Program-made: the position numbers and the translations under genes
Shown here: positions 13,401-56,151 of the stretch, piece by piece
How positions within the stretch are numbered: the first letter of the stretch is position 1
Layout of the letters: each line of letters opens with the position of its first letter
IMG/VR virus record: IMGVR_UViG_3300027304_000003
Reading direction: 5' to 3' (one strand)
Source: a virus
Lineage: Duplodnaviria > Heunggongvirae > Uroviricota > Caudoviricetes
Length of the DNA stretch: 64,000 nt
The notes under the pieces: generated by a model
Seen by the model: only the letters and a program-made list of their open reading frames with translations
Told to the model about the DNA's origin: nothing
Databases searched by the model: none

Positions 13401-16400
13401 ATACAATGGATTAAACTCAACATCCTTACCATCTTTAGCTTTCTTTTGAACATCTTCTGACATCAATCTTAATGCTTCAAAGATACTCTTAGCTTCATCT
13501 GGTGTAAACTTTCTATTGTTTAACCACTGCAATGTGTCACCATATTGCAACATTGGTCTTCCTTTAGGGATATTATAGTTTTCTCCATTGTGAGAAATGA
13601 TTCCTGTTGTAGAAACTACAATTACATTAGCTTGATTCTTAATCTTCTTTTCAGGGATTAAGTTATCACCAACATGATTAGTTTCAGGCTTACCATCTAC
13701 AGGAGTTTCAACAGCCATACCTCTAGAGATAGAGAAGCTGTATAACTGTGGATTGTTAGGATCTGAAGCAAACACATCTGCCCTTGCTTTCTTCCAAGCC
13801 TCCATATATGCTTCTGCTTCTGCCTCCTCACCTTTTTTAAATCTAGGCACAGGATTGCCTTGAGCATCTTTGTAATTATAATACAATGATGCTGTAGGCA
13901 TATTAGCAAATACTAAACTATTAACATCTGCTTGTGTACCATCTACTTTAGATAAACGCTTACCATCTTTATCAACATAATAAAGAGTGCTACCCTCTTG
14001 TTCCACATAAACAGCAGTTACCAATCCATTATCTACATCAATAAGCTTTGCTTGCTCCTCAGGTGTAAACGTTTCTTGGCCATAAGCTACATTATCAAGA
14101 GTGGTTAATCCTAATCCTTTATATTGTTTAGGAGTGACAAGCATCACTTTGATGTTGTCTCTATTAGAGAAGTTCTTAATATTATTTAAGAACTGTCTTG
14201 TACGTATTTGATATGTCTTAGAAGGAGCAACACCATCATCCATTGAGTCTACAGTGGAGATAAAGAATATATCAACTCTCTTCTTCTTAGGTTCTTTTAC
14301 TTGCTGCTCTTTGCTTGGGTCATCAGTAGATACTGCTCCAGACTTTATTTCTATTCTAGTTTGAGCAGCTCCTAACTGATTAGCTATCTTCTGTAGTTTC
14401 TCTTGATCTGTTTGAACTCTACTGAAACCAGATAACTTTCTAGGATTAATATCATAGATGTCACCATTAACATCTTCTATCTTAATTGAACCATCTGGAT
14501 TAAGAGCCAAAACCTTAATCTTCTGTAAGTTATTAAACTCATCAGTTAGTTCATCAGATCTTTCTTGTGCTTTTTCTTTGCTAGGAAGTATCTCATATGT
14601 TCCATCAGGAGATACAACTTGCCATCTATCATCATCAAGTTTATTAATCTTTGTCTTATACACCTTACCCATCTCATACTCTCTATCCACCTCAAGATTC
14701 TCAGCTTGTTTATTAGCATTGTTGAATCTAAACTTTACAGGTTCTTTAGGTGTCTCTGGTGTAGGAGCAGTTTCTTCTTTCTTCTCTTCCTCATTTACAA
14801 CAGCATCTTTATCAGAAGCCATTTCTTCTGCCTCTTTGAAGTATTTCTCAAAGCCTTCTTTAGTAGACATCTCATCATAAGCCTTAGATGCATCCTTCTT
14901 TCTTTTTTCTAAAGCGTTGATATCTACACTATAATCCATTAATTCTTGAGCATGTAAAGAAGCTACAGATTTACCTAATGTAGCATCTTGACCATTCAAC
15001 TCAAAGTTTAATAAGCTATCAAATGTTTTATCATCTACCTTACCAGTATTAAGTGCTTGGGCAATTAGTTCAGATCTTGTACGTAATGCTTTGATCTGAT
15101 CATTTATTTTCTTCTTATCTACAGGTGTAGTGTAATCTGTAATAGTCTTCTTTAAAGATGTAGCTTTCTCTTCATAGAACTTAGCTAATTCTGCAAGACC
15201 TTGATTATTAGTAAGTTGTGATAATACGTCTGTAGTGATATTAGGATTAATCTTATTAACAGACTCTTGAATAGATTGAATTCTACTATCTGCAAGCGTT
15301 GGCATTGCAGCAAAATAGGTTAAGTCTTTCTTATACTTTTCAAATGTAATATAGTTGTTAGCCTCAACAATACTATCTATATTATCAGCATTATAGTTTA
15401 TCTTAAATGGATTCTTAAATGTAGTATTAACAGTTTCATATGTATCTTTAATATCATTTGATTTGGCAATCATACCATCTACATATTCACTTACAGTGGC
15501 TCTGTTTGTAGAATTGAAATCCAATTGGAACATACTTTCAAACTGTTCTTTGGATAGGTTTTTCAACATATTCAATTGCTCAACTGTTACATCATGCATT
15601 CCTGATGGAAGACGAGATGTTACAAAGTTGAAGAACTCATCAGCCTGTAAGTTTTTATATTTAAACACATCACCTGAAGCAGCAGCTTCTTCCATATCTT
15701 TTGCAATACCTGCAGAAGTTACAGTGTTATCATAGTTATTCTGTAATGTACTAGTAATACCCACTTGATTAAGTACATTAGTTGCTGTAGCTAATCTAGC
15801 ATCTTTACTTAATCCTCTCTTAGCATCAATACCACTTTGTACACCACCAACAACAAGACCTGTTAATCCACCAATCAACATGTTCTCAAGACCTTCTGTA
15901 CTAGTAAATTGTTCATTCAATCCATAGACAGTGGAATTGATTAATTCATTAACACCATTCCATTGTTCCTTATACTTATCACTCTTGTACTTTCTTGTGT
16001 AATAATCATATGTTCCTCTCTCAGCTGCAAACTGTCCACCTTCTTCAAACACACCCTCTCTAAATACATTAGCACCTGTTGGTCTAACACTTTCCCATAC
16101 CTTTCCTAAAACAGATGTAGCTGCCTTTTTTTCAAACACATCTAAGCTACCTTCTTTTAATCCTACTTTACCAAGTCCTTCTAACTCTTGTGTAAGTGAT
16201 CCAGATATAGCTCTGCTGCCTGGAACACCAACCATTGTTTTAAATAAGTTATTGAACTGTAATGAGTTGGATACAGTGAGTAATGCCATGTTAATACCAA
16301 ACCTGGTATTCATAGCATTTGTAGAAAGGTTTTCTATTTGTTGTAAATCATCTCCTGTAGGCTCTTCTCCTGCATGAGTGAGTTTGTATTGGTTAGTTAA

Positions 16401-17381
16401 TTCATCCTTAACCATACTATATCCATTCCTAGACTCAACACCAGCTTCTGTCATAGCAGAACCTAATATAGCTGTGGTAGTTCTAAATCCTTTTCCTAAT
16501 TTTGCAGCTGCTGCCAATTGAGCAAGTTCAGTTACTTTGAACATCTGAGCTTCTGTCTTACCAAGTCTTTCACCTAATTGTTCAAGTCTTCCTAATTGAG
16601 AAATTTGCGTTGCCCCTAATCCTCTACCTATAGCAGTCTCAGCACTAAATAATTTATTTAGATATAATGAAGCCTTACCAATTTGGTTAGCTAATAGTGG
16701 AATCTCACCTATACCTTCTGTTACAGCACCTATTGCAATATCTTGTACAACAGCACCACCAACAGCTCCTAACATAAATCCTAGGTTGGGAATAAACTTC
16801 TCACCCCACCAATATGCATTTCCTTTCATAAAGGGAATAGCAGATAAGAAAGGATTCTCTCTAACATACTTACTAGCATAGTTAGGAAGATCCTCATTTA
16901 TATTTTTTACCCAGTTATCAATAGACCCTTCATATCCATCTGGATCTCCTGATAACTCAGATAGATCTTTTGATCTTGCAGCATCTAATACATTAGGAAA
17001 GTTTGTTAAAGATTGAGCAAATGTTCCAGCTCCTATCAATCCCATCTTAGCAATACCATTACCTAATATCTTATACCAAGGTTGGCTCTCTGCATATACA
17101 TCTTCTAAATCAGGCATGTTCCTATCATAGATAGGATAGCGTCTATTTGCATATATTTCAGCAGCAGAAATAGAACCAAAAGATTTACCAAATCCTTTTG
17201 GAGCCACATCTGGTAAGTTTATTATTTCATCAATACTTAATCCACGTTGTTTTTCAGGGCCATATAAAGCTCCTCCAATAGATAAATCTACTGGTTTTGC
17301 AGAACCTAAAACAGATTTAGGTGCACCTAATTCACTTAAGTAATCAGTATCTTGTATAGGTTCTTGCTCAGACATTGCCAT
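4461..17381 (-). CDS. Giant 4306-aa virion protein. It has an RNAP beta-prime-like DxDxD motif (DFDID, nt about 7651-7665) and an HExxH zincin motif (HEIFH, nt about 11700-11715). Candidate crAss-like virion RNA polymerase/ejected multidomain protein.
   Basis: One uninterrupted 12.9-kb ORF. The motifs AGSDFDIDKL and EYHEIFHGIFGG are read directly. It lies at the distal end of the structural operon, where crAss-like phages place their giant RNAP-containing proteins. Confidence 0.85.
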   Translation of the reverse strand: MAMSEQEPIQDTDYLSELGAPKSVLGSAKPVDLSIGGALYGPEKQRGLSIDEIINLPDVAPKGFGKSFGSISAAEIYANRRYPIYDRNMPDLEDVYAESQPWYKILGNGIAKMGLIGAGTFAQSLTNFPNVLDAARSKDLSELSGDPDGYEGSIDNWVKNINEDLPNYASKYVRENPFLSAIPFMKGNAYWWGEKFIPNLGFMLGAVGGAVVQDIAIGAVTEGIGEIPLLANQIGKASLYLNKLFSAETAIGRGLGATQISQLGRLEQLGERLGKTEAQMFKVTELAQLAAAAKLGKGFRTTTAILGSAMTEAGVESRNGYSMVKDELTNQYKLTHAGEEPTGDDLQQIENLSTNAMNTRFGINMALLTVSNSLQFNNLFKTMVGVPGSRAISGSLTQELEGLGKVGLKEGSLDVFEKKAATSVLGKVWESVRPTGANVFREGVFEEGGQFAAERGTYDYYTRKYKSDKYKEQWNGVNELINSTVYGLNEQFTSTEGLENMLIGGLTGLVVGGVQSGIDAKRGLSKDARLATATNVLNQVGITSTLQNNYDNTVTSAGIAKDMEEAAASGDVFKYKNLQADEFFNFVTSRLPSGMHDVTVEQLNMLKNLSKEQFESMFQLDFNSTNRATVSEYVDGMIAKSNDIKDTYETVNTTFKNPFKINYNADNIDSIVEANNYITFEKYKKDLTYFAAMPTLADSRIQSIQESVNKINPNITTDVLSQLTNNQGLAELAKFYEEKATSLKKTITDYTTPVDKKKINDQIKALRTRSELIAQALNTGKVDDKTFDSLLNFELNGQDATLGKSVASLHAQELMDYSVDINALEKRKKDASKAYDEMSTKEGFEKYFKEAEEMASDKDAVVNEEEKKEETAPTPETPKEPVKFRFNNANKQAENLEVDREYEMGKVYKTKINKLDDDRWQVVSPDGTYEILPSKEKAQERSDELTDEFNNLQKIKVLALNPDGSIKIEDVNGDIYDINPRKLSGFSRVQTDQEKLQKIANQLGAAQTRIEIKSGAVSTDDPSKEQQVKEPKKKRVDIFFISTVDSMDDGVAPSKTYQIRTRQFLNNIKNFSNRDNIKVMLVTPKQYKGLGLTTLDNVAYGQETFTPEEQAKLIDVDNGLVTAVYVEQEGSTLYYVDKDGKRLSKVDGTQADVNSLVFANMPTASLYYNYKDAQGNPVPRFKKGEEAEAEAYMEAWKKARADVFASDPNNPQLYSFSISRGMAVETPVDGKPETNHVGDNLIPEKKIKNQANVIVVSTTGIISHNGENYNIPKGRPMLQYGDTLQWLNNRKFTPDEAKSIFEALRLMSEDVQKKAKDGKDVEFNPLYANFLQNVLFWKKGADTKNNQMYIDDRTMDLYLGGKKYNFANLAISEKEIVSQLQNTFNTVNNDSVKKNDEEFTELYFEDKYLKDRQWPNYQSYLLSSKLPNGKGRSIKDTPLSTSVTKPSDRVPYNYRQKYVTLGGLELAVQKITKPVAPVAKGGATEIGGYKMDGTTTHTRELKALGNVTFTARLNSNGVPAVTVDTIENLESIVADPAKTAPYFDFLKNNKDASGKSLFDATRSEQELMYDFASIAIANQLNKMKNAETAPAAQPAPVVSNEKGFQGYKGGFENTGKGTVQGDGKDKAMRKVADGFIGESVSTNNKSFVTSTQRIENLKPLSSTDTSYKEIADKTGTNYEGLDNNPSLQSGNDDGIIMLARNSKFSGKGLQKSTKDAILKAKNNGAEFVVGDMPGVDIQFIDYLQEIGAKFTIYHTGATSRTTIVGLVDDIAPAPTVQENVEKLEQLEDTVDDAEEKALEDEINKQIAEKVNALGKTKAPKKRYREIAGLDVPRMTDAELQLFKEWHAKNAAGIPFEVLQRVMTTNDGRQAWGAFENGVAKFYKSAARGTEYHEIFHGIFGGFLSAEERQLIFDEFKSKSGKFKDRATGSMIYYEEATDQQAEERIADDFADFRLGKLPAKSIGERILKFFRSIIQFVREFVNKPSKKDELFKTIEAGRFKDTKLNPAVYNQLTQWSVIPGLDEPTTHESVQDVAARFFFEVFSKNMDLYNPKLLTSPEIFDTIKEEFAEEGKLDVLGEEGWSQLVKKSREFLRTFKIQFDENNVIVFNNDDNTNRDYAPEPFSVDWKKQSSFPIKITVGSLVLTVPTNQENALRLQMPDEVISGSAKGFMLLNFSRAFATILNKISNTSSIGKVVDKLLTLAKQDSNYVRLWSKLGGTIDKLGSENKETAIDYSKFQAHDWRLFINFYQTFTKQHPNARIQYVSDDEVYTGSAELSDAIDDVVEGWIEGIKALSKDSKSLIVLDKPNKVYKVGDLSNIEIKNPEQMVDFLSKIGVIFPIDVYNKLTTREKNVFGRAIGGLLTSLRSKSDILSSVTSKLLDIKGPLNAMGEMLVRVTNPNFDPTHINVEGERTNGYAENNNSSVFENEWREAGTLENLKQARPELNDPFSTNSLILKKDGLYIDEDGNIKRDLKVGYIQGTKDVDTDDGTSTSKLTLGNRYTQEINENVNGRFYILLPAESSTEWQMDLGINVPFKQFGTKIGWDTTYKIFQGYLKDDIALAKDADVRKKLKNIGNRAYDLRFFKDILSEDMLAKINTELVMKSASDEEVIAFIAENEEEINGSIKSYFDEYINDTIATLKEYGQVVPSANGKALAYPMLNSVFAKISGINRYNLTDEKLRNLIEYVNINYVISNIEFHKILFGDPYQFALKEGESEETKRIKSFLSPRRTTFDMPEYNEFLNNEFNKAGEIELTPDDLGYHKHKSHTNTVTIKEIYVEGGLMGRTKEADAQSWIMDTTNREVKLKNAQWTDEAEIFHQWQMAYTRNRMAAKGKYTYTNDTLKKQDAALIETPVPKYGVEVLKPIVTGNKLGKTYFELVLDKFSQLPLYYQAIEGTTLEGLYIKMWEEKIGYAILESGRKMGTTEAFDLYKDGKLNPEPFNNLVQVPWKAYGIQVETNYDVVKAQTRGSQPTKLVTVDLFDNGVPVSQRAKEATDRNNNILDLMHENAYNVLLERLGIEDLGTEFILANKQAVSNTLVYEMLRRELDENAKDTVQLDSKGEFPIPFEASPSYKQIKDILYSVVQKTMVSPKVNGGPKVQVSVTGWENLEKGRRLAIKTEDGYKEISREDYDKLSDEEKKKVVLTDDTLKFYTKDDPYMEIMLPHWFGDTLRKTTKYTTDEEIINYLNITEEGKSILRGIGFRVPAQELSSLVTFRVKKFLPQFMGESVVVPSEITTLAGSDFDIDKLNTYLKSIYIDVNGNIRLVKWLGSEEATKDFFRGVYKDTIQRDIDKIEEFEEFRSKLVDVLSKLERIEGAASPESLESALTPSELDFFYDRLSIFKAITDQAAQKDITAVDYMNKQIEDLSINKEKLTKDILSNSLREDYVKDMYKRSLENEYYDSMEELLTLPENFERLISPVNDAGLEKLSVRIGKLVNPKGDQVKNKILNRNFMTKLRHYFVTAKRWIGIAATNITSHSLFQKGQIYLNPERFFMLPQQDRKFIGDGSIILPHNKVKIGDKEYASLSGTKTADGKKQYISSRLSGYGTSFVDVANKPYIVELVTSDLSVGTFMFLERIGAGEYTGIFMSQPIIREYLKQLDSQNKKGLFSKFDIDSIKSNFVTTNKAIETARIDISNLEANIADYYAGNELGIERNAEQHAILNEFLKYAKLAEYNFDLTQAINYDTTRYRSGDTLFKKQVRTDITIARSPFSGIAELLDPENPKIFIAKQRHYLDLSMEGMGVILKLEQDQFRINVIDPLLKPYARNKYVGADDFERIANKLKASFLDYIIQTKTGFNSEINKLFVNPKTSVSAQLEEAKKISSNPILNDFKVISSPRPDGVMSVKLTVNIKGSAYDKNLYIGYMRQLRDTPSTNALYKDLVKMALLQGTYENGVSIASIIPIEDSSKYVAPIMAPLMYDESLDAFADGGFQRNNWKDNKVFKKFEPKFWLADEAPVDVQVNDFGDIIGDIYQYQSSDYFPNIDKFGLSTDRRILALSEEYDSFYLSNDYLLVPRVVQIKGGERVDMKTGLSITNYSYVERKNQGDMSLKNVYGYKKVYYDDGTPVTYQTTTYKGEVINKHVYKLINLRGDGRLVSEYYTDSRKSVLNNGTEKIENEISDDEIRIYFNELGEQNFVSSQSTEPYIQIPDYVTDEKLKNADGTKRFAQASKLGTITINPPKSVDEFFNYFEGKEGGPTSEQKAKVLNKLADKGYTIDVLKTILNSVDKITNFLVLHEKNHVENNDIDVYWKNGKDLLTDDKVDIETRATIAALDKLGGIPSVIDIEFEDVNTDDTEGSDNPTPCGTKQ

Positions 17382-44442: not shown

Positions 44443-44490
44443 AGAAGACTCCCCCACTGGGATGTGGGGGGAAGGTCTTCTGAGTTTTTT
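44443..44490 (+). terminator. Strong GC-rich hairpin with a T6 tract. It has terminator polarity for the plus strand, inside the minus-strand structural operon, just downstream of the capsid candidate.
   Basis: AGAAGAC-T-CCCCCAC-tgggat-GTGGGGG-gaag-GTCTTCT then GAGTTTTTT. The minus-strand reading has the A6 upstream and no U-tract. Confidence 0.5.
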
Positions 44491-47407: not shown

Positions 47408-47525
47408 ATGTAGTTGTATTTATTTGGTTTTCAATGTAAAAGTATATCAAGTTAAATTAACAGCAAAGAGACAAGGCTCCATATAGGCTATTATTCAATA
47501 TAATATAGCATTAATATTTTTTACT

Positions 47526-48056: not shown

Positions 48057-50641
48057 TATTTAGGTTTTTTAGTAGCTCTTCCTTTAGCGTTTTCTTTAGC
48101 AACAGCTAAGTCATTTGCTTGGTTATCTCGTGCCACTTGTAGTTTCTCTTTCTCTAATTGTAACTTCTCAGCAGCAAGTCTATTCTTAGTCATATTATCT
48201 TGCATCTTCATTTGATAATCTCTTGAAGCACTTTCTTTTTGTAATCCTATCTTTTCAATTTCTAGAACATCAGGAGAGCCAGATTTATCTACATCAGACA
48301 ATGGACCTGCTTTAGATTCAGCTCCAATAAGAGCAATCTCTTTCTTATTGATTCTATCAAGCTCAGCTTGGTAGTTGTCATTAGCTATCTTATTATCAGC
48401 TTGTTGTTGAGCCAACTGAAGTTGAGCTTGAGCTTGTTGTTGCTGTTGTTCAAGTTCTTGTTGCTTTTGTTGCATTTGAGTATTTTGTAATTGCTCTTGT
48501 CTCTCCTTGAGTGTCTTAAATACCTTCTTCATTTGTCTCATGGAGTTAGTACTGTAAAGTTCAATTACATCATGTAAAGATCCACCATTTTGAAGAACTG
48601 CTTGAGACAATCCTCTAATTTCATCAAATGCTTTTCTATCTTCAGGTCTGTTAGTTAAATATACTTTTAAATCTCTGAATCTAAGATCTGTACCATTTAC
48701 AGTTACAAAAGCAGATTCTCCTTGATTAGTAATATAAGATATAGTTGATTGTGGCTTCTTAGCTTCTACATATAAAGCTGCATCAATAACAGCTTGATAT
48801 AACTGACCCATAATATATTCATGTGCTACAAACAAAGGTTCTGTCTGAGCATAAGATTGTGTAATTGCTGTATTGGTACCTGTAGCTGTTTCACTAGCAG
48901 ATACAGATCCTAATCTTTGTTTAGACATACCAATTAATTCCCAACACTCATTCTTTATTTGTTGAGCTAGAGTATATCTTGCTTGGATCTCTGTAGTACG
49001 TGTAAGGTCAAGACTTGTAAATTGATTGAAGCTAGATGGACTCTTTAAGTTCTCAGGACTATCATCTACAAATACAACTCCTCTGTTACGTGCTTCCATT
49101 TCCCAGATATCTAATGCATCTTGAGCATCTCCATCCTTAGGAATAGGAATGTGTCTAATAGACATCAACTGCACTTTACCCACTTCCTTCTCAAGTAACT
49201 TATACAATTGGTTCATACAAACATTGTATATAACTTGGAAAGGTTTCATCATATCTACTAAACTCTTAGCTTCTGTATTCTTAACTTCAAATGTTTGACC
49301 TATGATAGGACAATAAGGTAATAACTTATAAGGTTTAACATGATAGATATCTGGACCAATCTTAATACCTTGGTACCATTGGTTAATCCATCCCCACTCT
49401 AATGATTCTTGTGTAGGAATAGTTCCTGATTTATAATTTTCATCTACAAGTAAAGATTGCTCATTACCCATCTCATCTGTGTAGATTACTTTACCTATCT
49501 TCTTTTTAGAAATCCAGTAAGCTCTTACCACTACATACTTGTAACCAAATGAAGATACGTTAGATGTAAGTCCCAAGAAGTCCTTAAGACCATCATTGTT
49601 CTCTTTCATTTCTGATTCAATAAGCATTCTAGTCTGTAAGACTAATGGGTCAAATGTATCATATTGGATAGAGTCATTACCTGGAACAGCGTTAGGATTA
49701 CCTAAGTTAGATTCACGTACATTGATTAATCCATAGTCTTGTAATGAACTACGTAAGTGATCTATCTCATCTTTGGTTAAGTCAGGAATAGCTTCAATGA
49801 TTTCAGATAATTCTAATACTTGTACAGTACCAGCAGCGTATGCTCCTTGTGCTCTACCAGTTGTATCAGATATCCACTTTCTATCTGGAGTAGTTAAGAA
49901 CCAAGTGTTCTTAGGGTTAGCTACCTCAATATTAAATCCAAGTTTAGAGTTGTCCTCATAGACATGAAAGAACTCTCTAGCAGATATTAATAAGTCTCTA
50001 AATGAATCTTCTCCTTTTTCTTTAAGATTAAATTCAATCTTTTGAGCTGAAAGAATATGATTTGCCCACTTCTCTGCTACAGATGTATAGTTATCTATTT
50101 CATCTTTTACTTGTTCCATGGTCATTTGATCCAACTCCTCAGGATCAATTTCTTGACCTTGAGCCATAGCATTTTGTTCTATCTTTTGCTTTGCTTGATT
50201 GATTACATATTCGTTTAGTATCTGAGTTTTAAATTGTAACTCTTCAGCTTGACTATCATCATCAAATGCTTTTACTAGGAAAGCATCAGGTCGCTTTGAT
50301 ATCTCTCCTACTAATTCATTAATAGGAGTTGTCATTATAGAATAATGTTTTACATAAGCAGGAAGTTCAAGATCTGATGTAAGTACATCTGTAAAACTTC
50401 TAACTTCTGGTTCTACAAAGAAATCTTCTCTTCTTAAAATACCTTTAACAAGATCATAGTTTTTTACAAATGTATCTCTAGCTTTGACATACTCAGCATA
50501 GGCTTTGTTTGCAAAGTAGTCCATTGTATTTTTGATCCAGCTTTCATCCATCTTTTCCTTCTCAGTTTTAAACTGATCAGGAAAGATATTTAGATAAGCA
50601 TATCTTATTGTTGCGTCTTTCGTGTACCTTATAATTGCCAT
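48056..50641 (-). CDS. 861-aa portal protein candidate with a C-terminal Gln-rich coiled-coil tail.
   Basis: Size and position immediately downstream of the terminase candidate. The C-terminus reads QQKQQELEQQQQQAQAQLQLAQQQ. Confidence 0.5.
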   Translation of the reverse strand: MAIIRYTKDATIRYAYLNIFPDQFKTEKEKMDESWIKNTMDYFANKAYAEYVKARDTFVKNYDLVKGILRREDFFVEPEVRSFTDVLTSDLELPAYVKHYSIMTTPINELVGEISKRPDAFLVKAFDDDSQAEELQFKTQILNEYVINQAKQKIEQNAMAQGQEIDPEELDQMTMEQVKDEIDNYTSVAEKWANHILSAQKIEFNLKEKGEDSFRDLLISAREFFHVYEDNSKLGFNIEVANPKNTWFLTTPDRKWISDTTGRAQGAYAAGTVQVLELSEIIEAIPDLTKDEIDHLRSSLQDYGLINVRESNLGNPNAVPGNDSIQYDTFDPLVLQTRMLIESEMKENNDGLKDFLGLTSNVSSFGYKYVVVRAYWISKKKIGKVIYTDEMGNEQSLLVDENYKSGTIPTQESLEWGWINQWYQGIKIGPDIYHVKPYKLLPYCPIIGQTFEVKNTEAKSLVDMMKPFQVIYNVCMNQLYKLLEKEVGKVQLMSIRHIPIPKDGDAQDALDIWEMEARNRGVVFVDDSPENLKSPSSFNQFTSLDLTRTTEIQARYTLAQQIKNECWELIGMSKQRLGSVSASETATGTNTAITQSYAQTEPLFVAHEYIMGQLYQAVIDAALYVEAKKPQSTISYITNQGESAFVTVNGTDLRFRDLKVYLTNRPEDRKAFDEIRGLSQAVLQNGGSLHDVIELYSTNSMRQMKKVFKTLKERQEQLQNTQMQQKQQELEQQQQQAQAQLQLAQQQADNKIANDNYQAELDRINKKEIALIGAESKAGPLSDVDKSGSPDVLEIEKIGLQKESASRDYQMKMQDNMTKNRLAAEKLQLEKEKLQVARDNQANDLAVAKENAKGRATKKPK

Positions 50642-52680
50642 TATGAAAACAATTTATTTCGTTTATATTTATTTTTTGATTGTCCAAACATGTTATTTCT
50701 AGAGTCAGTGAAGAGTATGTTTCCTCTCTTCTTCTTAAACATAGAAGCAACTCGTTCATCACTTGTTCCACCTATCTTACCCATAATTGGGTCCATCTTC
50801 AAAGCTTGTGCTATGGCTAACTCTGCAGCTATGATTCTATCAAAGTTACCTTGATCATTGTATTGAATAATCTCTTCAAGCAATACAGGATCAAATATCT
50901 TACTCACACCTAACACTTCTCTAATCACTTCACCTGCTTCATTCTTTTCCACAAAGATTGGAGCTTCCATATACTTCTTTAAACAAGTGTGAAGATAGTC
51001 AATTATCTTCTGACTTGAACGATGAATACCATAATCTCTTTTAACTGTAGTGTTAGGAACAATCTCTTTCAACCATTCAGGTTGTCTTTCTAAAAAGTGA
51101 GCATCTCCTTTAGCTTTCATATATTCAATAAAGGATATATCATCATTCTCACAAAGAGCTCTAGCATTATAATACTTTATAAGAAGTCTAGCTTGTTCTT
51201 CCCAAGTTTCTTTCTTATCAGGTCTTGCACAATACGAAGCTACGAACATATCTTGATATTTCTCACCACTAATTTCATGCATCCTCTTATATATGTATAC
51301 AGATCCAAGCGAAGTTGAATATGCAGACTTACCTTGTCTATATGGATCGACTCCTGCTACATACAATCCATAAGGTGGATTATCTATAGGGAATTCATAT
51401 ATAACTACAGGTGCTTCTTTTAAGTCTGAGTTCTTTAGAGGGAAGTTAGAGATAGGTAGTTTATCTGTAAACTCATGCTCTATACCATTCTCTCCAGAAA
51501 ATAATATAACTGGAGTTCCTGTTCTTTCTTGTTGTAACAACCTGGACTTCTGTCTCTTAGCACTCTCAATATCAAATATATTTGTGTCCTCGTTCAAGAA
51601 GATATCATCTACCTCTTGAGGATAGTACATCTTTTCTTTTAGATAGGCAATACGATCACCAGCTTTCTTAAGTCTTTCTAAATCTCTATTAGTAATTTCT
51701 GTAGCCTTATCTTCATTACTTACAAGCATTTTAACATTATGTAAGTCTGAACTAGCTGACTCATTTAAGTATGCTCCTAGTGTAGAATCCTCCTTTGCCT
51801 CCATTCTATATTTATGGGAGATAAACAACCCATGTATACGTTTGTCATCTTTAGCATTATTATATGTAAGGAAATTAAAGTTGTCTACGTCAAACATTAA
51901 GCTTTTGGCATCCATGAATTTCTTCATGTCACCACCTGTACCAGTAAGAATGGGACTACATCCCCAACCATAGGGTGTAGTGAAACCAGGAATAGCTGCC
52001 TGTAAGCCTCGAAGGAAATTTCCTTTACCAATCTCATCTATAATTAATTTACGTGGTTTTGTACCTGCAATTGCCTCTTCATTATTACCTTCATCAAGGT
52101 TACGTATTAGAATGGAAGAGAATGGGATACGTTCACCAGACTTGGTCTTTATACCTAGAGTCACTTGGTTCTTCCAGTTGTCCTCAATTCTCTGCCACCT
52201 CCAATACTCAGGAATGAAATTCAATCCTTTGTCAATCTTATCAGTAATCAGTTTTATATCTGGGGCATTTAAGCCTGCTATGATATTCTGACTGTTTTCA
52301 TCAAAGGTCGCACCCCATGCAATATAGGATGCTTCAAGAACAGACTTGGCAAAACGTCTAATACCTAGAATGACTAAGCCCCTCTTTTCTTGTTGAGCTC
52401 TGTCAATTTCGTTCGTCACAAGCCATTCATTATCTCTCAATAGGGGATTGGCATATTTCTGTGCAATCCTCCCATAACTATCTATTATATCTACTTCTGT
52501 ATGCCATATATTAAGGTGCCAGTAAAGGAAAGGATTAATATAAGTTCCTCCCATCATAGCTCCATTTAAGCATAGCTCTCTGTGAAAGTCAAAGAATGGC
52601 TTACATTCCTGAGACTCTTTATCAGGAATACGCTTCTGATTTATAAACCAGTCTTTGTAGTCTATACTTTGTAGTTCCAT
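50641..52680 (-). CDS. 679-aa terminase large subunit candidate.
   Basis: Deviant Walker A-like LGIRRFAKS, Walker B-like KLIIDEIG, and size/position adjacent to the portal candidate. Confidence 0.55.
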   Translation of the reverse strand: MELQSIDYKDWFINQKRIPDKESQECKPFFDFHRELCLNGAMMGGTYINPFLYWHLNIWHTEVDIIDSYGRIAQKYANPLLRDNEWLVTNEIDRAQQEKRGLVILGIRRFAKSVLEASYIAWGATFDENSQNIIAGLNAPDIKLITDKIDKGLNFIPEYWRWQRIEDNWKNQVTLGIKTKSGERIPFSSILIRNLDEGNNEEAIAGTKPRKLIIDEIGKGNFLRGLQAAIPGFTTPYGWGCSPILTGTGGDMKKFMDAKSLMFDVDNFNFLTYNNAKDDKRIHGLFISHKYRMEAKEDSTLGAYLNESASSDLHNVKMLVSNEDKATEITNRDLERLKKAGDRIAYLKEKMYYPQEVDDIFLNEDTNIFDIESAKRQKSRLLQQERTGTPVILFSGENGIEHEFTDKLPISNFPLKNSDLKEAPVVIYEFPIDNPPYGLYVAGVDPYRQGKSAYSTSLGSVYIYKRMHEISGEKYQDMFVASYCARPDKKETWEEQARLLIKYYNARALCENDDISFIEYMKAKGDAHFLERQPEWLKEIVPNTTVKRDYGIHRSSQKIIDYLHTCLKKYMEAPIFVEKNEAGEVIREVLGVSKIFDPVLLEEIIQYNDQGNFDRIIAAELAIAQALKMDPIMGKIGGTSDERVASMFKKKRGNILFTDSRNNMFGQSKNKYKRNKLFS

Positions 52681-53546: not shown

Positions 53547-53841
53547 ATATTGTTTGTATTAATTGATCTTCATCTTCCTTAGATTCCATCTCTGGTCCCC
53601 ATTTGTCTATGGGACAGCTACAAGATAAACACTTAGTTTTTGCTGATAGGACACATCCACAATGGGTGCAATGCTTATCAAACCTACGAGGCTTCTTAGG
53701 TTTGTTCTCAGAACACCATTCGCATTGATCACAAATGGCCATACGTTCTTTACTGACTTGTCTAATCTGTTCTTTTATTTCATCAGCTGGAAAGAGGTTG
53801 TTCTTCCACCCCTCGTATATCTGAGAGAAGTTGATCTTCAT
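53494..53841 (-). CDS. 115-aa Cys-rich zinc-finger/zinc-ribbon protein.
   Basis: CDQCEWC...HCTHCGC...CLSCSC, i.e. several CxxC pairs. Confidence 0.55.
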   Translation of the reverse strand: MKINFSQIYEGWKNNLFPADEIKEQIRQVSKERMAICDQCEWCSENKPKKPRRFDKHCTHCGCVLSAKTKCLSCSCPIDKWGPEMESKEDEDQLIQTIYGKQGSENREDSTGQAN

Positions 53842-54184
53842 ATATAGTTTTTGTTGTTAGCAAATTGATCAGAGCTTCTGTTTTTTCTAGTGTCACCTTA
53901 GATGAACGTTTCTTTTGTTCAGATGTAGTTTCATCTATTATTATCCTTTCCATTGCCTGCTTCTTAGCATTCAATTGTCCAAGTCGTTTTATAGCTTTCT
54001 TCTCATTGAAATAGAACTTACCAAAGCCAGATATCTCTAGACTATTGTTAAGATCCATTGCCTCATTGGCAGACTGAAACTGATGGTTTATCACAGCCTC
54101 AATCATCTTTTCATTCATCATCATCTTAACTGCAAGCGTCCTAACTAGGAAGTCTTTAACAGACATGCTTATAGGCTTATCCAT
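53783..54184 (-). CDS. 133-aa HU/IHF-like DNA-binding protein.
   Basis: Two N-terminal helices followed by the GFGKFYF beta-arm-like motif. crAss-like phages are known to encode IHF-like proteins in this module. Confidence 0.5.
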   Translation of the reverse strand: MDKPISMSVKDFLVRTLAVKMMMNEKMIEAVINHQFQSANEAMDLNNSLEISGFGKFYFNEKKAIKRLGQLNAKKQAMERIIIDETTSEQKKRSSKVTLEKTEALINLLTTKTIYEDQLLSDIRGVEEQPLSS

Positions 54185-54551
54185 GTATTAGACTTATTTG
54201 CAATATAATATCCTTGTCGAAGTTGAGCAAGATGAGAGGATTGACCTTCACCTTTGTCCCATCCTTTACAAACACACCCATCTTCTTCAGCTTACTAATA
54301 ATGTTATTGATTGCAGGAGATGTACTGTCGTACTTCTCACAAAACTCCTTACGTATGTTAGCATAGGATATATTACCCTTCATGGCAGCAAACGCAATAA
54401 GCTGTATCTCCCTGTTTGTCAACTTAAGGTCGTTGACAGATGACAAGATCCTATAATACTTCTCAGCCAGGACGTAACTGTCCTCCACTGATCTTTTCAG
54501 TCGTTGTACAATAGGAGATTTAGGTTTGGTTTCCATAATTAGTTGATACAA
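54177..54551 (-). CDS. 124-aa putative winged-helix/HTH DNA-binding protein. First gene of the minus-strand operon.
   Basis: ORF adjacent to the regulatory region. The segment LTNREIQLIAFAAMKGNISYANIRKEF is HTH-like. Confidence 0.45.
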   Translation of the reverse strand: MYQLIMETKPKSPIVQRLKRSVEDSYVLAEKYYRILSSVNDLKLTNREIQLIAFAAMKGNISYANIRKEFCEKYDSTSPAINNIISKLKKMGVFVKDGTKVKVNPLILLNFDKDIILQISLIHG

Positions 54552-54614
54552 AGGTATGTATATCTTACCTATCTACAAATAACTATTTTAGTTATTGCAA
54601 AAGTTAATGCTATA

Positions 54615-54860
54615 TTATGCATCAAATCTCCTAAACAGGAAAATAACACTGAATAACAACAGTCCTATCCTAAGCTCCTGTTCTAACCCTTCATCTTCCA
54701 ACTTGTAGTTTCTATTAGACACTCCTAGTTCAAAACTATTGTAGTCTTTAGGTAGAAACTCTATACCTATCTCATACTCCTCAAAGCAGACTAACCCCCA
54801 TACAATCACTGCCATACTAAGTAACGTCACTATAACCAACAACACATTTACTACTACCAT
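54615..54860 (-). CDS. 81-aa small membrane protein with hydrophobic N- and C-terminal helices.
   Basis: ORF with two hydrophobic stretches. Confidence 0.45.
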   Translation of the reverse strand: MVVVNVLLVIVTLLSMAVIVWGLVCFEEYEIGIEFLPKDYNSFELGVSNRNYKLEDEGLEQELRIGLLLFSVIFLFRRFDA

Positions 54861-55126
54861 ATATCTAAGCTTTTATTAATGAGAGGTGAATTAGCAGGGC
54901 CCCCCCTAAATCCCCCCCAAAGATACTGCTAAATAAATTTACCAGCCAAATTTATTTTTTCCTATTATCAAAACTTGCAGGATTTTCTAGTTTTGATACA
55001 ACAGGATATTATATCATAAAGCATATAATATGTAAGATGATTCCATCATTATATGTAAAGACATATCATAATGTGTCATAAAAGCAACATTGTTAAGCTG
55101 AGCATATCCCTTATAAGACACATTAT

Positions 55127-55176
55127 GTAAAGCTATAGCTTGACAAAACGTAAGATGGGTAAAGCTATAGCTTGAC
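55127..55176. repeat. Two perfect 18-bp direct repeats GTAAAGCTATAGCTTGAC 32 bp apart, each containing the 12-bp palindrome AAGCTATAGCTT.
   Basis: Read directly at 55127-55144 and 55159-55176. Confidence 0.8.
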
Positions 55177-55268
55177 TTTTGGCAGAATATAGACTTGTTA
55201 TAACTTGCCAAATCAGGAAGTAAAACACAGCCAAACCCAGAAGTCCTTGTTACCTATTTATATAAATA

Positions 55269-55330
55269 TGTCACAAATATTTGAAAAATTGTGACACAAT
55301 GTGCATGAAGAATTTGGAAAAATTCATGCA
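55269..55330. repeat. Tandem pair of similar palindromic elements: TGTCACAA-N12-TTGTGACA and TGCATGAA-N13-TTCATGCA. Both spacers contain TTTG(G)AAAAA.
   Basis: Read directly at 55269-76/55289-96 and 55302-09/55323-30. Confidence 0.8.
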
Positions 55331-55525
55331 ACGTTCCTTGTGGAACTATCCTGTGCTTAGGCCCAAAATTTTATATAGCCCCCCTACCCCCTTTGTATGT
55401 ATAGGGGAGGAGGGTAACCCAGATTGCACCCCCGTGCACAAAACAGGGGGTTGACATAGCCCCCCTATGGCTCACAATTAACAAACCTATAGTGGAGACA
55501 CCACTACAAAACTGTAAAATTCGTT

Positions 55526-55912
55526 ATGGTAATCAATTCAGGCAACTTCTCACCAAATGGTAACTTCAATGGTTACAACACTAAAGGCGAAAGAATCCAC
55601 ATCTACAAGCGTCAGATGGATGCATTGGGCATTAAGGTTGATGCAGACTTTAAGCAATTCTTCGCTATAGTTGCAAAGAAGACTTATGGTGCAAGACTTG
55701 ACAAAGATGGTAATGCAATACCTTACGCTGATGGCAAGTTAACAATGACTCGTGATACTGCAACTGCAGTGTTCAAGACCAAGCAAGAGTACATTGACGC
55801 TCACGTGATAGACGCTACATTAGATGCAGAAGTTGCACAGGCTATCAAGAAAGAGTACACTGCTGTGGGCATCACAAGCGAAGCAGAGCTTGAAGAGTTG
55901 GCAGGGGCTTAA
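55526..55912 (+). CDS. 128-aa early protein, unknown function.
   Basis: First ORF of the plus-strand block; followed by a terminator hairpin. Confidence 0.7.
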   Translation: MVINSGNFSPNGNFNGYNTKGERIHIYKRQMDALGIKVDADFKQFFAIVAKKTYGARLDKDGNAIPYADGKLTMTRDTATAVFKTKQEYIDAHVIDATLDAEVAQAIKKEYTAVGITSEAELEELAGA

Positions 55913-55927
55913 TCTCACACTTAACAA

Positions 55928-55961
55928 GGGCTTGGAACATCATCCAAGCTCTTGTTTTCCC
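55928..55961 (+). terminator. Intrinsic terminator after the first early gene.
   Basis: GGGCTTGGA-acatca-TCCAAGCTC followed by TTGTTTTCCC. Confidence 0.6.
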
Positions 55962-56151
55962 TTATTCGTATATAAGGGTGGGTGTAATGACACGTTTGGG
56001 TGGGAATAATTATATAACTCACTGAAATTCAATACATTCTGTGTGAATGAACGAGATGGTGTAGGTTCTATTGACCCTTTTAGTGGTCTAAACAACATTT
56101 GATAATCTGTGCTATACAATACAATATATATAGCATTAAATAACAATTAAC

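Follow-up and report, generated by a model that had tools for sequence, protein, structure and literature searches.

The DNA analysed here is a stretch of 64,000 nucleotides (nt) from a tailed-phage genome (Caudoviricetes; IMG/VR record IMGVR_UViG_3300027304_000003), which we call the window, and our subject is the 665-bp gap at positions 54861–55525 that separates its two divergent gene blocks. The leftward block encodes TerL (50641–52680), a P22-like portal, a crAss-type capsid protein, a crAss muzzle protein and a 4306-aa open reading frame (ORF); the rightward block consists of small genes followed by a DNA polymerase (60990–62942). An earlier note, made from the letters alone, had placed the gap between two divergent blocks of an AT-rich genome and was right on both counts, since the GC fraction per kb runs from about 0.27 to 0.46 and is mostly 0.32–0.37. 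The 4306-aa ORF (4461–17381, minus strand) has no Pfam match and carries, at residue 3240, the sequence GSDFDIDKLN, which matches the catalytic DFDID motif of the virion RNA polymerase of phage phi14:2; DFDID is the signature of the crAss two-barrel enzymes, and the ORF matches no T7-like family. The nearest cultured phages by TerL are Leptolyngbya phage Lbo-JY46 (39%) and Cellulophaga phages (31%), and a nucleotide search of INPHARED with 2.5 kb around the site found no match among deposited phages. For comparison, 168 related IMG/VR loci were recovered through TerL, the first rightward protein and the DNA polymerase, 80 of them through TerL; the related sequence scanned came to 1.42 Mb anchored on TerL and 1.07 Mb anchored on the DNA polymerase. 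Coordinates of the features discussed below are collected in Table 1.

Runs of at least six C or G occur five times in the window, and four of them lie inside the gap: C7 at 54900–54906 and 54912–54918 (the twin C7) and C6 at 55379–55384 and 55460–55465, as counted in a direct reading of 54400–56100. The earlier note had called the runs at the junction the only long ones, which is nearly right, the exception being a G6 at 44466–44471. A model of independent, identically distributed bases predicts about 3.2 such runs per 64 kb against the five observed, and the excess is one of clustering, as four of five fall within 1% of the window (roughly 6 × 10−8 by a binomial estimate). G4Hunter scores of at least 1.5 are likewise confined, in the whole window, to 54892–54928 (2.20) and 55366–55403 (1.72). 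C/G-run elements are found at the homologous distance from TerL in most of the 80 TerL-recovered relatives, so that the motif is not missing from relatives, the outcome that the earlier note had said would count against it. The lone G6 run elsewhere overlaps a C5-N10-G5 hairpin (44451–44471) in the gap downstream of the major capsid gene, which may be the terminator of that gene.

Not every motif around these runs is conserved. The 11-mer TAGCCCCCCTA occurs twice, as had been noted, at 55457–55467 and at 55376–55386 (one nt to the left of the 55377–55387 first given). GGGGAGGAGGG lies between the copies at 55404–55414 and TGCACCCCCGTGCA, which contains the TGCAC/GTGCA palindrome, at 55425–55438, and GGGC7TAAATC7 is flanked by TAGCAG (54892–54897) and CTGCTA (54926–54931). 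The exact 11-mer, the TAGCAG/CTGCTA bracket and the palindrome are all present in the window and are not conserved in relatives, and are therefore probably incidental. Nor do the runs form a phase-variable contingency locus: among close strains, the twin C7 stays at 7/7 in the window, L171–173 and L084–086, the last C6 is constant, and only L021 departs (8/7). Finally, the C-tracts are not copies of one element, as had been supposed, and belong instead to two different conserved elements. The C-runs are the C-rich strands of these two elements, each of which would head one of the two transcription programmes.

The first element is, on the strength of its sequence, a well-supported Bacteroidota sigma-A-type promoter that includes the twin C7 and would fire leftward into the structural block. 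On the minus strand this promoter (P−) reads TTTG-N21-TATCTTTG and continues directly into GGGGGG-ATTTA-GGGGGGG-CCC, which we call the G-box. TTTG and TAnnTTTG are the consensus elements of the Bacteroidota primary sigma factor (PMC7366714); P− shares both, at canonical spacing, and points at downstream genes, but differs from other promoters of this class in having a quadruplex-type box that starts at the last base of its −7 box. P− and the G-box are kept in 58 of 62 relatives with enough sequence. Among these 58, the spacer is 21 nt long in all but one (20 nt) and variable in sequence, and the −7 box is TATCTTTG, TACCTTTG, TAACTTTG or TATTTTTG, so that only the "nn" of TAnnTTTG varies. Since the −7 box occupies −12 to −5 in Flavobacterium (PMC9723704), transcription from P− would by analogy start (+1) near 54913, inside the first G-run, and the second G7 would lie at about +8 to +14. 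The full sigma-A pattern occurs five times in the window against 1.6 expected, and the other sites are not followed by G-runs; a scan for sigma-70-type promoters showed no enrichment (30 matches, 35.9 expected). A second leftward site of sigma-A type (Table 1) shows that host-type promoters are likely to drive the leftward block. A leftward −7-like box at 55482–55489 and a sigma-70-like TTGACA in a hairpin loop were set aside as not conserved or poorly spaced.

The assignment of P− to the host enzyme agrees with what is known of phi14:2, in which the rightward genes are early and transcribed by an injected, rifampicin-resistant polymerase and the leftward genes are middle or late and transcribed by host RNA polymerase (Drobysheva et al. 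preprint, 10.1101/2020.03.07.982082). The promoter of g110, the first leftward gene at the phi14:2 junction, was reported as a host-polymerase middle promoter (10.1101/2020.03.07.982082). It has the same junction position as P− and the sequence TTTG-N20-TATCTTTG, but lacks a G-box, is followed by an ATG 4 nt later, and there is no quadruplex motif in the 14 kb of phi14:2 examined. The earlier suggestion that the C-tracts are promoters for an injected virion polymerase thus does not suit the twin C7, which is fused to a leftward host-type TTTG-N21-TAnnTTTG promoter. The 81-aa ORF that follows P− in the subclade of the window is absent in another subclade (L019–L029), in which P− and the G-box are followed by about 165 nt of non-coding DNA and then by the second promoter. 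As P− and its G-box are kept with or without this ORF, they are conserved independently of the downstream sequence, a layout that points to a role intrinsic to the promoter–box unit.

Table 1. Features of the divergent junction (coordinates are those of the window)
Feature	Coordinates	Strand	Remarks
Second leftward sigma-A-type promoter	54549–54579	-	TTTG-N19-TACCTTTG; 12 nt before ATG 54536; kept in relatives
First leftward ORF	54615–54860	-	81 aa; hydrophobic by eye; 53 nt downstream of predicted P− start
G-box, G7-ATTTA-G7	54900–54918	-	Canonical quadruplex motif G3-N1-G3-N5-G3-N1-G3; about −5 to +14 of P− (predicted); G4Hunter 2.20
−7 box of P−, TATCTTTG	54918–54925	-	The first G7 run opens with the last G of the box (54918)
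−33 element of P−, TTTG	54947–54950	-	Exact TTTG-N21-TATCTTTG match at 54950–54918
Two exact 18-nt direct repeats, GTAAAGCTATAGCTTGAC	55127–55144, 55159–55176		32 nt apart (start to start); each holds the 10-nt palindrome AGCTATAGCT
Three inverted repeats	55269–55296, 55302–55330, 55333–55346		TGTCACAA..TTGTGACA, TGCATGAA..TTCATGCA, GTTCC..GGAAC; upstream of rightward module; conserved
AAAATTTT block, module start	55365–55372	+	Nearly invariant in 20 aligned versions; fixed distance to purine box
First TAGCCCCCCTA copy plus C5 (C6-TA-C5)	55376–55391	+	Minus strand G5-TA-G6; G4Hunter 1.72
Purine box, GGGGAGGAGGGTAACCC	55404–55420	+	Clade consensus ATGGGAGRGGAGGCTACTCC; most conserved module block
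C5 (55429–55433), G5 (55446–55450), 9-nt loop, C6 (55460–55465, second TAGCCCCCCTA copy)	55429–55465	+	G5 can pair with either C-run
First rightward gene	55526–55912	+	128 aa; no family match; own terminator 55923–55956
P+	55969–56004	+	TATATAA-GGGTGGG-[hairpin GTGT/ACAC]-gttt-GGGTGGG; second canonical quadruplex motif; faces rightward

What is conserved in the G-box is its potential to fold. The clade-wide form is TTTG-GGGTGG-N1-5-GGGTGGG(G), of which the twin G7 is a subclade variant, and near-identical strains exchange the twin-C7 allele for a GGGTGGAGGGTGGG allele. The whole window holds only two canonical quadruplex motifs, in opposite orientations, namely the G-box and a GGGTGGG-N15-GGGTGGG motif at 55976–56004 on the plus strand, which lies outside the region covered by the earlier note and belongs to an element that we call P+. 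The TerL-anchored sequence contains 86 such motifs where second-order Markov simulations predict about one, and 82 of them are at the two homologous sites, each on the non-template strand for outward transcription; in the DNA-polymerase-anchored sequence the motifs are confined to the junction zone. All 45 distinct versions of the P− G-box score at least 1.6 in G4Hunter. The G-tract or i-motif structure that had been listed as one option is thus upheld as a property of the sequence, in that a canonical motif is present on the minus strand, its potential is kept while the sequence changes, and such motifs are nearly absent elsewhere in these genomes.

P+ was present in 36 of 41 relatives with enough sequence, always after a terminator and a T-rich tract. 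Its approximately 43 distinct versions share one order, in which the terminator and T-rich tract are followed by TATATA(A/T), GGGTGGG, a 4–6 bp hairpin, NTTT and a second GGGTGGG. The hairpin in the spacer covaries, with at least 12 different stem sequences, and its summed stem length is 137 as against 61.8 ± 5.4 for shuffled spacers, a value reached by none of 1000 shuffles. Because this covariation is so strong, we infer that a single-stranded fold is under selection. At least six relatives carry a compact GGGTGTAGGGGTTAGGGGTTGTGGG in place of the hairpin form. Counting both sites, the interchangeable forms are G7-ATTTA-G7, GGGTGGAGGGTGGG, GGGTGGG-hairpin-GGGTGGG and GGGTGTAGGGGTTAGGGGTTGTGGG, and the left and right types assort independently.

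Could the boxes instead be read as duplex DNA? The repeated GGGTGGG boxes overlap the predicted starts on both sides, the central part of the gap contains operator-like palindromic repeats, and two candidate binding proteins are encoded just to the left, one by an HU-family gene (53783–54184) and the other by a minus-strand gene (54177–54551) whose product has one weak match, to sigma-70 region 1.1/helix-turn-helix (HTH). An HU-like or small HTH-like protein bound to such operators could act as a timing switch between the two programmes. However, the boxes are spaced 1–7 nt apart on the left and 9–25 nt on the right, the heptamer is swapped for G7 or GGGTGTAGGGG... in close relatives, and in a duplex site a covarying hairpin between the boxes would be superfluous. 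Since a protein that reads the duplex would hardly accept all of the forms found, a selected single-stranded fold fits better, and we regard duplex operators as improbable.

Single-stranded folding could also take place in RNA. Under this alternative the elements would be stabilizing stem-loops near the 5′ end of the transcript or antitermination signals, similar to nut or put sites, downstream of divergent promoters, and they would let the polymerase read through terminators and along the 50-kb leftward block. P+, with its conserved boxes and covarying hairpin, is formally like boxA/boxB, and the first rightward genes do have terminators behind them. The spacer of the G-box is, in the twin-G7 subclade, complementary to the sequence after the second run, with the compensatory pairs TTAGGG/CCCTAA and AAAGGG/CCCTTT, and of the 45 P− versions all but one show better folding of the sense strand than of its complement. 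The last observation, an asymmetry of the 5′ leader fold, loses its force because any G/U-rich strand shows the same, and we set it aside as an effect of composition; moreover, the mean z-score relative to shuffled sequences is only −0.9. The loop sequences of the P+ hairpin are not conserved, and P+ sits after a terminator and so may not be transcribed from upstream. No match to an Rfam family was found between 53500 and 57000 with covariance models at E ≤ 1, and ARAGORN found no tRNA or transfer-messenger RNA (tmRNA) in the window. A role as RNA signals therefore seems quite unlikely to us.

The reading that we favor, in which the G-strand folds as DNA at the promoter, has precedents. Promoter-proximal quadruplexes and G-loops on the non-template strand are known from the nuclease hypersensitive element NHE III1 of c-MYC and from stem-loop-containing quadruplexes. 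The G-boxes resemble these in their GGGTGGG tracts, 1-nt loops, long central loop with a hairpin, and location on the non-template strand near the start, but those systems are eukaryotic or were studied in vitro with T7, and here one base pair of the hairpin uses a tract G. The closest parallel is the pilE G4 of Neisseria, in which a small RNA starts within the G4-forming sequence and transcription is needed for the structure to act (PMC3547852, PMC10094033). Its motif is near-identical (TAGAAT-A-GGGTGGGTTGGGTGGGG), with a promoter element directly abutting the G-tracts. The pilE G4, however, is a single chromosomal site that serves pilin gene conversion, whereas here two outward-facing sites occupy the control region of a lytic phage.

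The second element, a conserved single-copy stretch of about 100 nt, lies on the other side of the gap, directly before the first rightward gene. We call it the TAGC6TA module, although the TAG..TA that flanks its C-run is not conserved. Its 20 distinct versions align over approximately 116 nt at near-constant length and share a fixed order: AAAATTTT, a C5–8 run whose position shifts by about 9 nt among relatives, (T)ATGGGAGRGGAGGCTACTCC, ACCCCTCC, and GTTGGGG-N2-4-CCCC (G5-N9-C6 in the subclade of the window), after which come an A-rich leader and the first rightward ATG. In L171, L084–86, L013, L016 and others, a partial upstream copy of AATTTT-N6-GC5-AKTCTTAT stands in tandem. The purine box is present once per locus, always at the junction and always on the same strand (within ±10 kb). 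In most relatives the last block is GTTGGGG-N2-4-CCCC(C), with a 4–6 bp G:C stem and a short loop of variable sequence, and the G5/C6 hairpin of the window is the sole pure-GC hairpin of at least 5 bp in the 8.5 kb of rightward block that the window contains. This short G:C hairpin appears to be the most conserved structural feature of the module. The Bacteroidota-type −7 box TAnnTTTG is absent from 22 of 23 module versions.

Its position, together with the analogy to phi14:2 and to the hairpin promoters of coliphage N4, makes the module a candidate start region and/or 5′ leader for early transcription by the injected RNA polymerase. In phi14:2, a C5 run is followed after 16 nt by GGGG-agtat-CCCC, 72 nt upstream of the first rightward gene, and the 14 kb examined contain one other hairpin of this kind, the T-arm of a tmRNA (at 4475). 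The N4 virion polymerase is likewise injected, uses short GC-rich hairpins (5–7 bp stem, 3-nt loop) upstream of early genes and, like gp66 of phi14:2, is active in vitro only on denatured DNA. In the relatives the stem measures 4–6 bp, with a variable loop of 2–4 nt, and in the window 5 bp, with a loop of 9 nt. N4 differs, however, in having a T7-like enzyme rather than the DFDID two-barrel type and in carrying, at the end of the genome that enters first, three promoters whose stem and loop bases are conserved, whereas here there is one hairpin with an unconserved loop. By polymerase type, copy number (a single hairpin and a single module at each locus, over ±10 kb) and loop conservation, the module falls outside the N4 class.

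Other identities for the module were considered and rejected. A small ORF that would begin at the purine-box ATG stays open in two relatives and, by eye, has early stops or no ATG in others. A T-arm or tRNA-like reading of the G5-loop-C6 hairpin fails because the loop is unlike TTCGAAT and ARAGORN is negative. An intrinsic terminator is not indicated either, as no C/G-run hairpin is followed by a T-run on either strand, and the true terminators of the region have one. The phi14:2 tmRNA mentioned above (L175, NC_021806, 4031–4500, plus strand), called by ARAGORN with the tag GSSVQKLAMVA, lies inside a long intergenic region that was described as a highly transcribed early non-coding RNA whose function is not known (10.1101/2020.03.07.982082).

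If RNA polymerase opens the duplex and initiates within the G-box, the freed G-strand could fold into a quadruplex, possibly accompanied by an R-loop, and the folded box might then tune the output of the promoter or mark the site for a later DNA transaction. On the other side, the module would provide the early start region and/or 5′ leader for the injected polymerase. Taken as a whole, the explanation that the gap is the divergent transcription-control region of an uncultured crAss-like phage with Bacteroidota-type promoters, with one conserved element at the head of each programme, seems to us about as likely as not.

A number of observations weigh against this interpretation. On the leftward side, only 12 of the 45 P− versions have four tracts of at least three G, while another 28 combine three such tracts with a G2 tract. 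A quadruplex of three layers is thus not strictly conserved there, and if +1 is 54913, the RNA itself would not include the first G-tract. At P+, the final G of the first GGGTGGG is paired in the covarying hairpin, and hairpin and quadruplex would thus partly compete. For the module, 180 nt would be expected to lack a −7 box by chance anyway. RNAalifold found no consensus fold for 20 module versions, only a 3-bp helix; the folds of single versions disagree, with many alternative pairings of C-runs and G-runs and no shared architecture; and the Watson-Crick folding energies of the elements in the window are unremarkable relative to shuffles (z from −0.6 to −1.8), for which reason we claim no defined Watson-Crick fold for the module. 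Its G:C stem cannot show covariation, and the module occurs only once even though each of the first two rightward genes is followed by a terminator. The authors of the phi14:2 study found no common motif upstream of early transcripts (10.1101/2020.03.07.982082). Lastly, the host phylum is itself deduced, on the basis of distant TerL relatives and of promoter motifs, a cyanobacterium is the host of the cultured phage whose TerL is closest (39%), and the elements are absent in Lbo-JY46, in phi4:1 and in the gp2/gp3 gap of crAss001, which makes them a feature of this clade and not a crassvirus rule. In crAss001 (L177, MH675552), GGGGGTAGGACCCC and GATGGGGGAGGTGGGG lie at 130–290, with a canonical TTTG-N20-TATCTTTG promoter about 90 nt downstream of them, and other crassviruses may likewise have G-rich elements close to their junction promoters.

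If the G-boxes fold upon transcription, might they start replication or recombination? Outward transcripts from the boxes would form R-loops, with G-rich RNA on the C-rich template, that quadruplexes hold open; the 3′ ends of the transcripts could prime leading strands in both directions, or nicking could start recombination that diversifies the cassette between the boxes. In ColE1 RNA II and in mitochondrial conserved sequence block II (CSB II), a G-run downstream of a promoter gives a persistent hybrid (rG6/dC6 in ColE1) and a replication primer, and both are precedents for such an origin. Like them, the G-box places a run of G behind a promoter, in the transcript or on the non-template strand, but the origin, RNase H processing and polymerase hand-over are theirs. 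The two quadruplex motifs, outward-facing and on non-template strands, bracket about 1.1 kb, and the pilE G4, which has the same promoter–G4 architecture, drives recombination together with its small RNA. The cumulative GC-skew minimum falls at 54–55 kb, but the switch in skew is fully confounded by the flip in gene orientation, and no initiator gene or DnaA-type boxes were identified.

The central region of the gap bears on the same question, as it holds direct and inverted repeats (Table 1). GTAAAGCTATAGCTTGAC is present in one or two copies in near-identical strains, with variants kept in relatives, and is probably a protein-binding site, either operator or iteron-like. An origin with repeats was proposed near the start of the forward strand in the prototypic crAssphage (PMC10983915). 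Around the motifs, moreover, the sequence is a mosaic at strain level and contigs break unusually often, with 35 of 47 truncated loci ending 1.7–4.7 kb upstream of TerL, but mosaicism and breaks are also expected from any hypervariable early region when strains co-occur. On balance, we consider a transcription-primed origin or recombination initiator unlikely.

The contig breaks raise the further question of whether the C-tract elements are the physical ends of the genome, that is, the boundary of a direct terminal repeat or the pac site of the nearby terminase, as the earlier note had suggested. Four contigs (L007, L010, L014 and L023) end exactly at the C/G runs, two others (L006 and L039) about 40 nt past the twin C7, and of the 17 contigs that reach 100 kb, 2 have an end within the junction of approximately 700 bp. 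Direct terminal repeats have also been proposed for the prototypic crAssphage (PMC10983915). However, the 113,936-bp contig that has L023 and L105 as its two ends is broken inside the twin C7, and these ends share no repeat and lack about 55 nt present in the close relative L022. The other 15 long contigs carry the junction internally, contig ends on the polymerase side are not clustered, most ends scatter through the early genes, and TerL is 2.2 kb away, with six or seven genes between. Short-read sequencing is known to break at G/C homopolymers and quadruplex motifs. We thus found nothing positive in favor of termini or a pac site. Direct-repeat termini that collapse in assemblies are conceivable, but the mosaic of strains in the 1.7–4.7 kb zone makes fragmentation during assembly the simpler explanation, and the pile-up of contig ends was likely caused by strain mosaicism together with sequencing trouble at G/C-run structures. 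We hold genome ends at this site to be very improbable.

Some neighboring features deserve mention. The minus-strand ORF at 54177–54551 was called from a TTG at 54551; given that the second sigma-A promoter extends to 54549, the ATG downstream of it at 54536 is probably the true start of the gene, which would then have a very short leader. The protein encoded by the first rightward gene recurs unchanged in 186 blocks of an assembly collection. ATATAGCATTAA recurs at 56128–56139 (plus strand), 54604–54615 (minus strand) and 47503–47514 (plus strand). At the junction there is one copy on each side, upstream of the next gene and oriented with it; these copies are kept in relatives and are unlike the sigma-A consensus.

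A bolder version of our reading, to which we give little credence, is that the gap is a phage counterpart of the pilE G4 and its small RNA. By this analogy, co-transcriptional G-loops at both borders of the control region would start bidirectional replication priming and/or recombination that shuffles a hypervariable early-gene cassette, and the hairpin module would be a structure-specific promoter for the crAss-type virion RNA polymerase.

How does the injected two-barrel RNA polymerase of crAss-like phages choose its start sites? The module offers a concrete template on which a recombinant polymerase can be tested. On the leftward side, a quadruplex motif fused base-to-base to a host-type promoter would, if true, be a rare natural case of a G4 embedded in a start site outside Neisseria. 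It is paired with a mirror-image motif on the other side, and such motifs are almost absent from the rest of the 2.5 Mb of related genomes. The elements would also account for the tendency of assemblies from this phage group to break at the junction. Both can be tested as switches for this phage family, and if our reading is correct, they would represent a lytic phage that uses DNA structure to time its transcription or to start replication or recombination.

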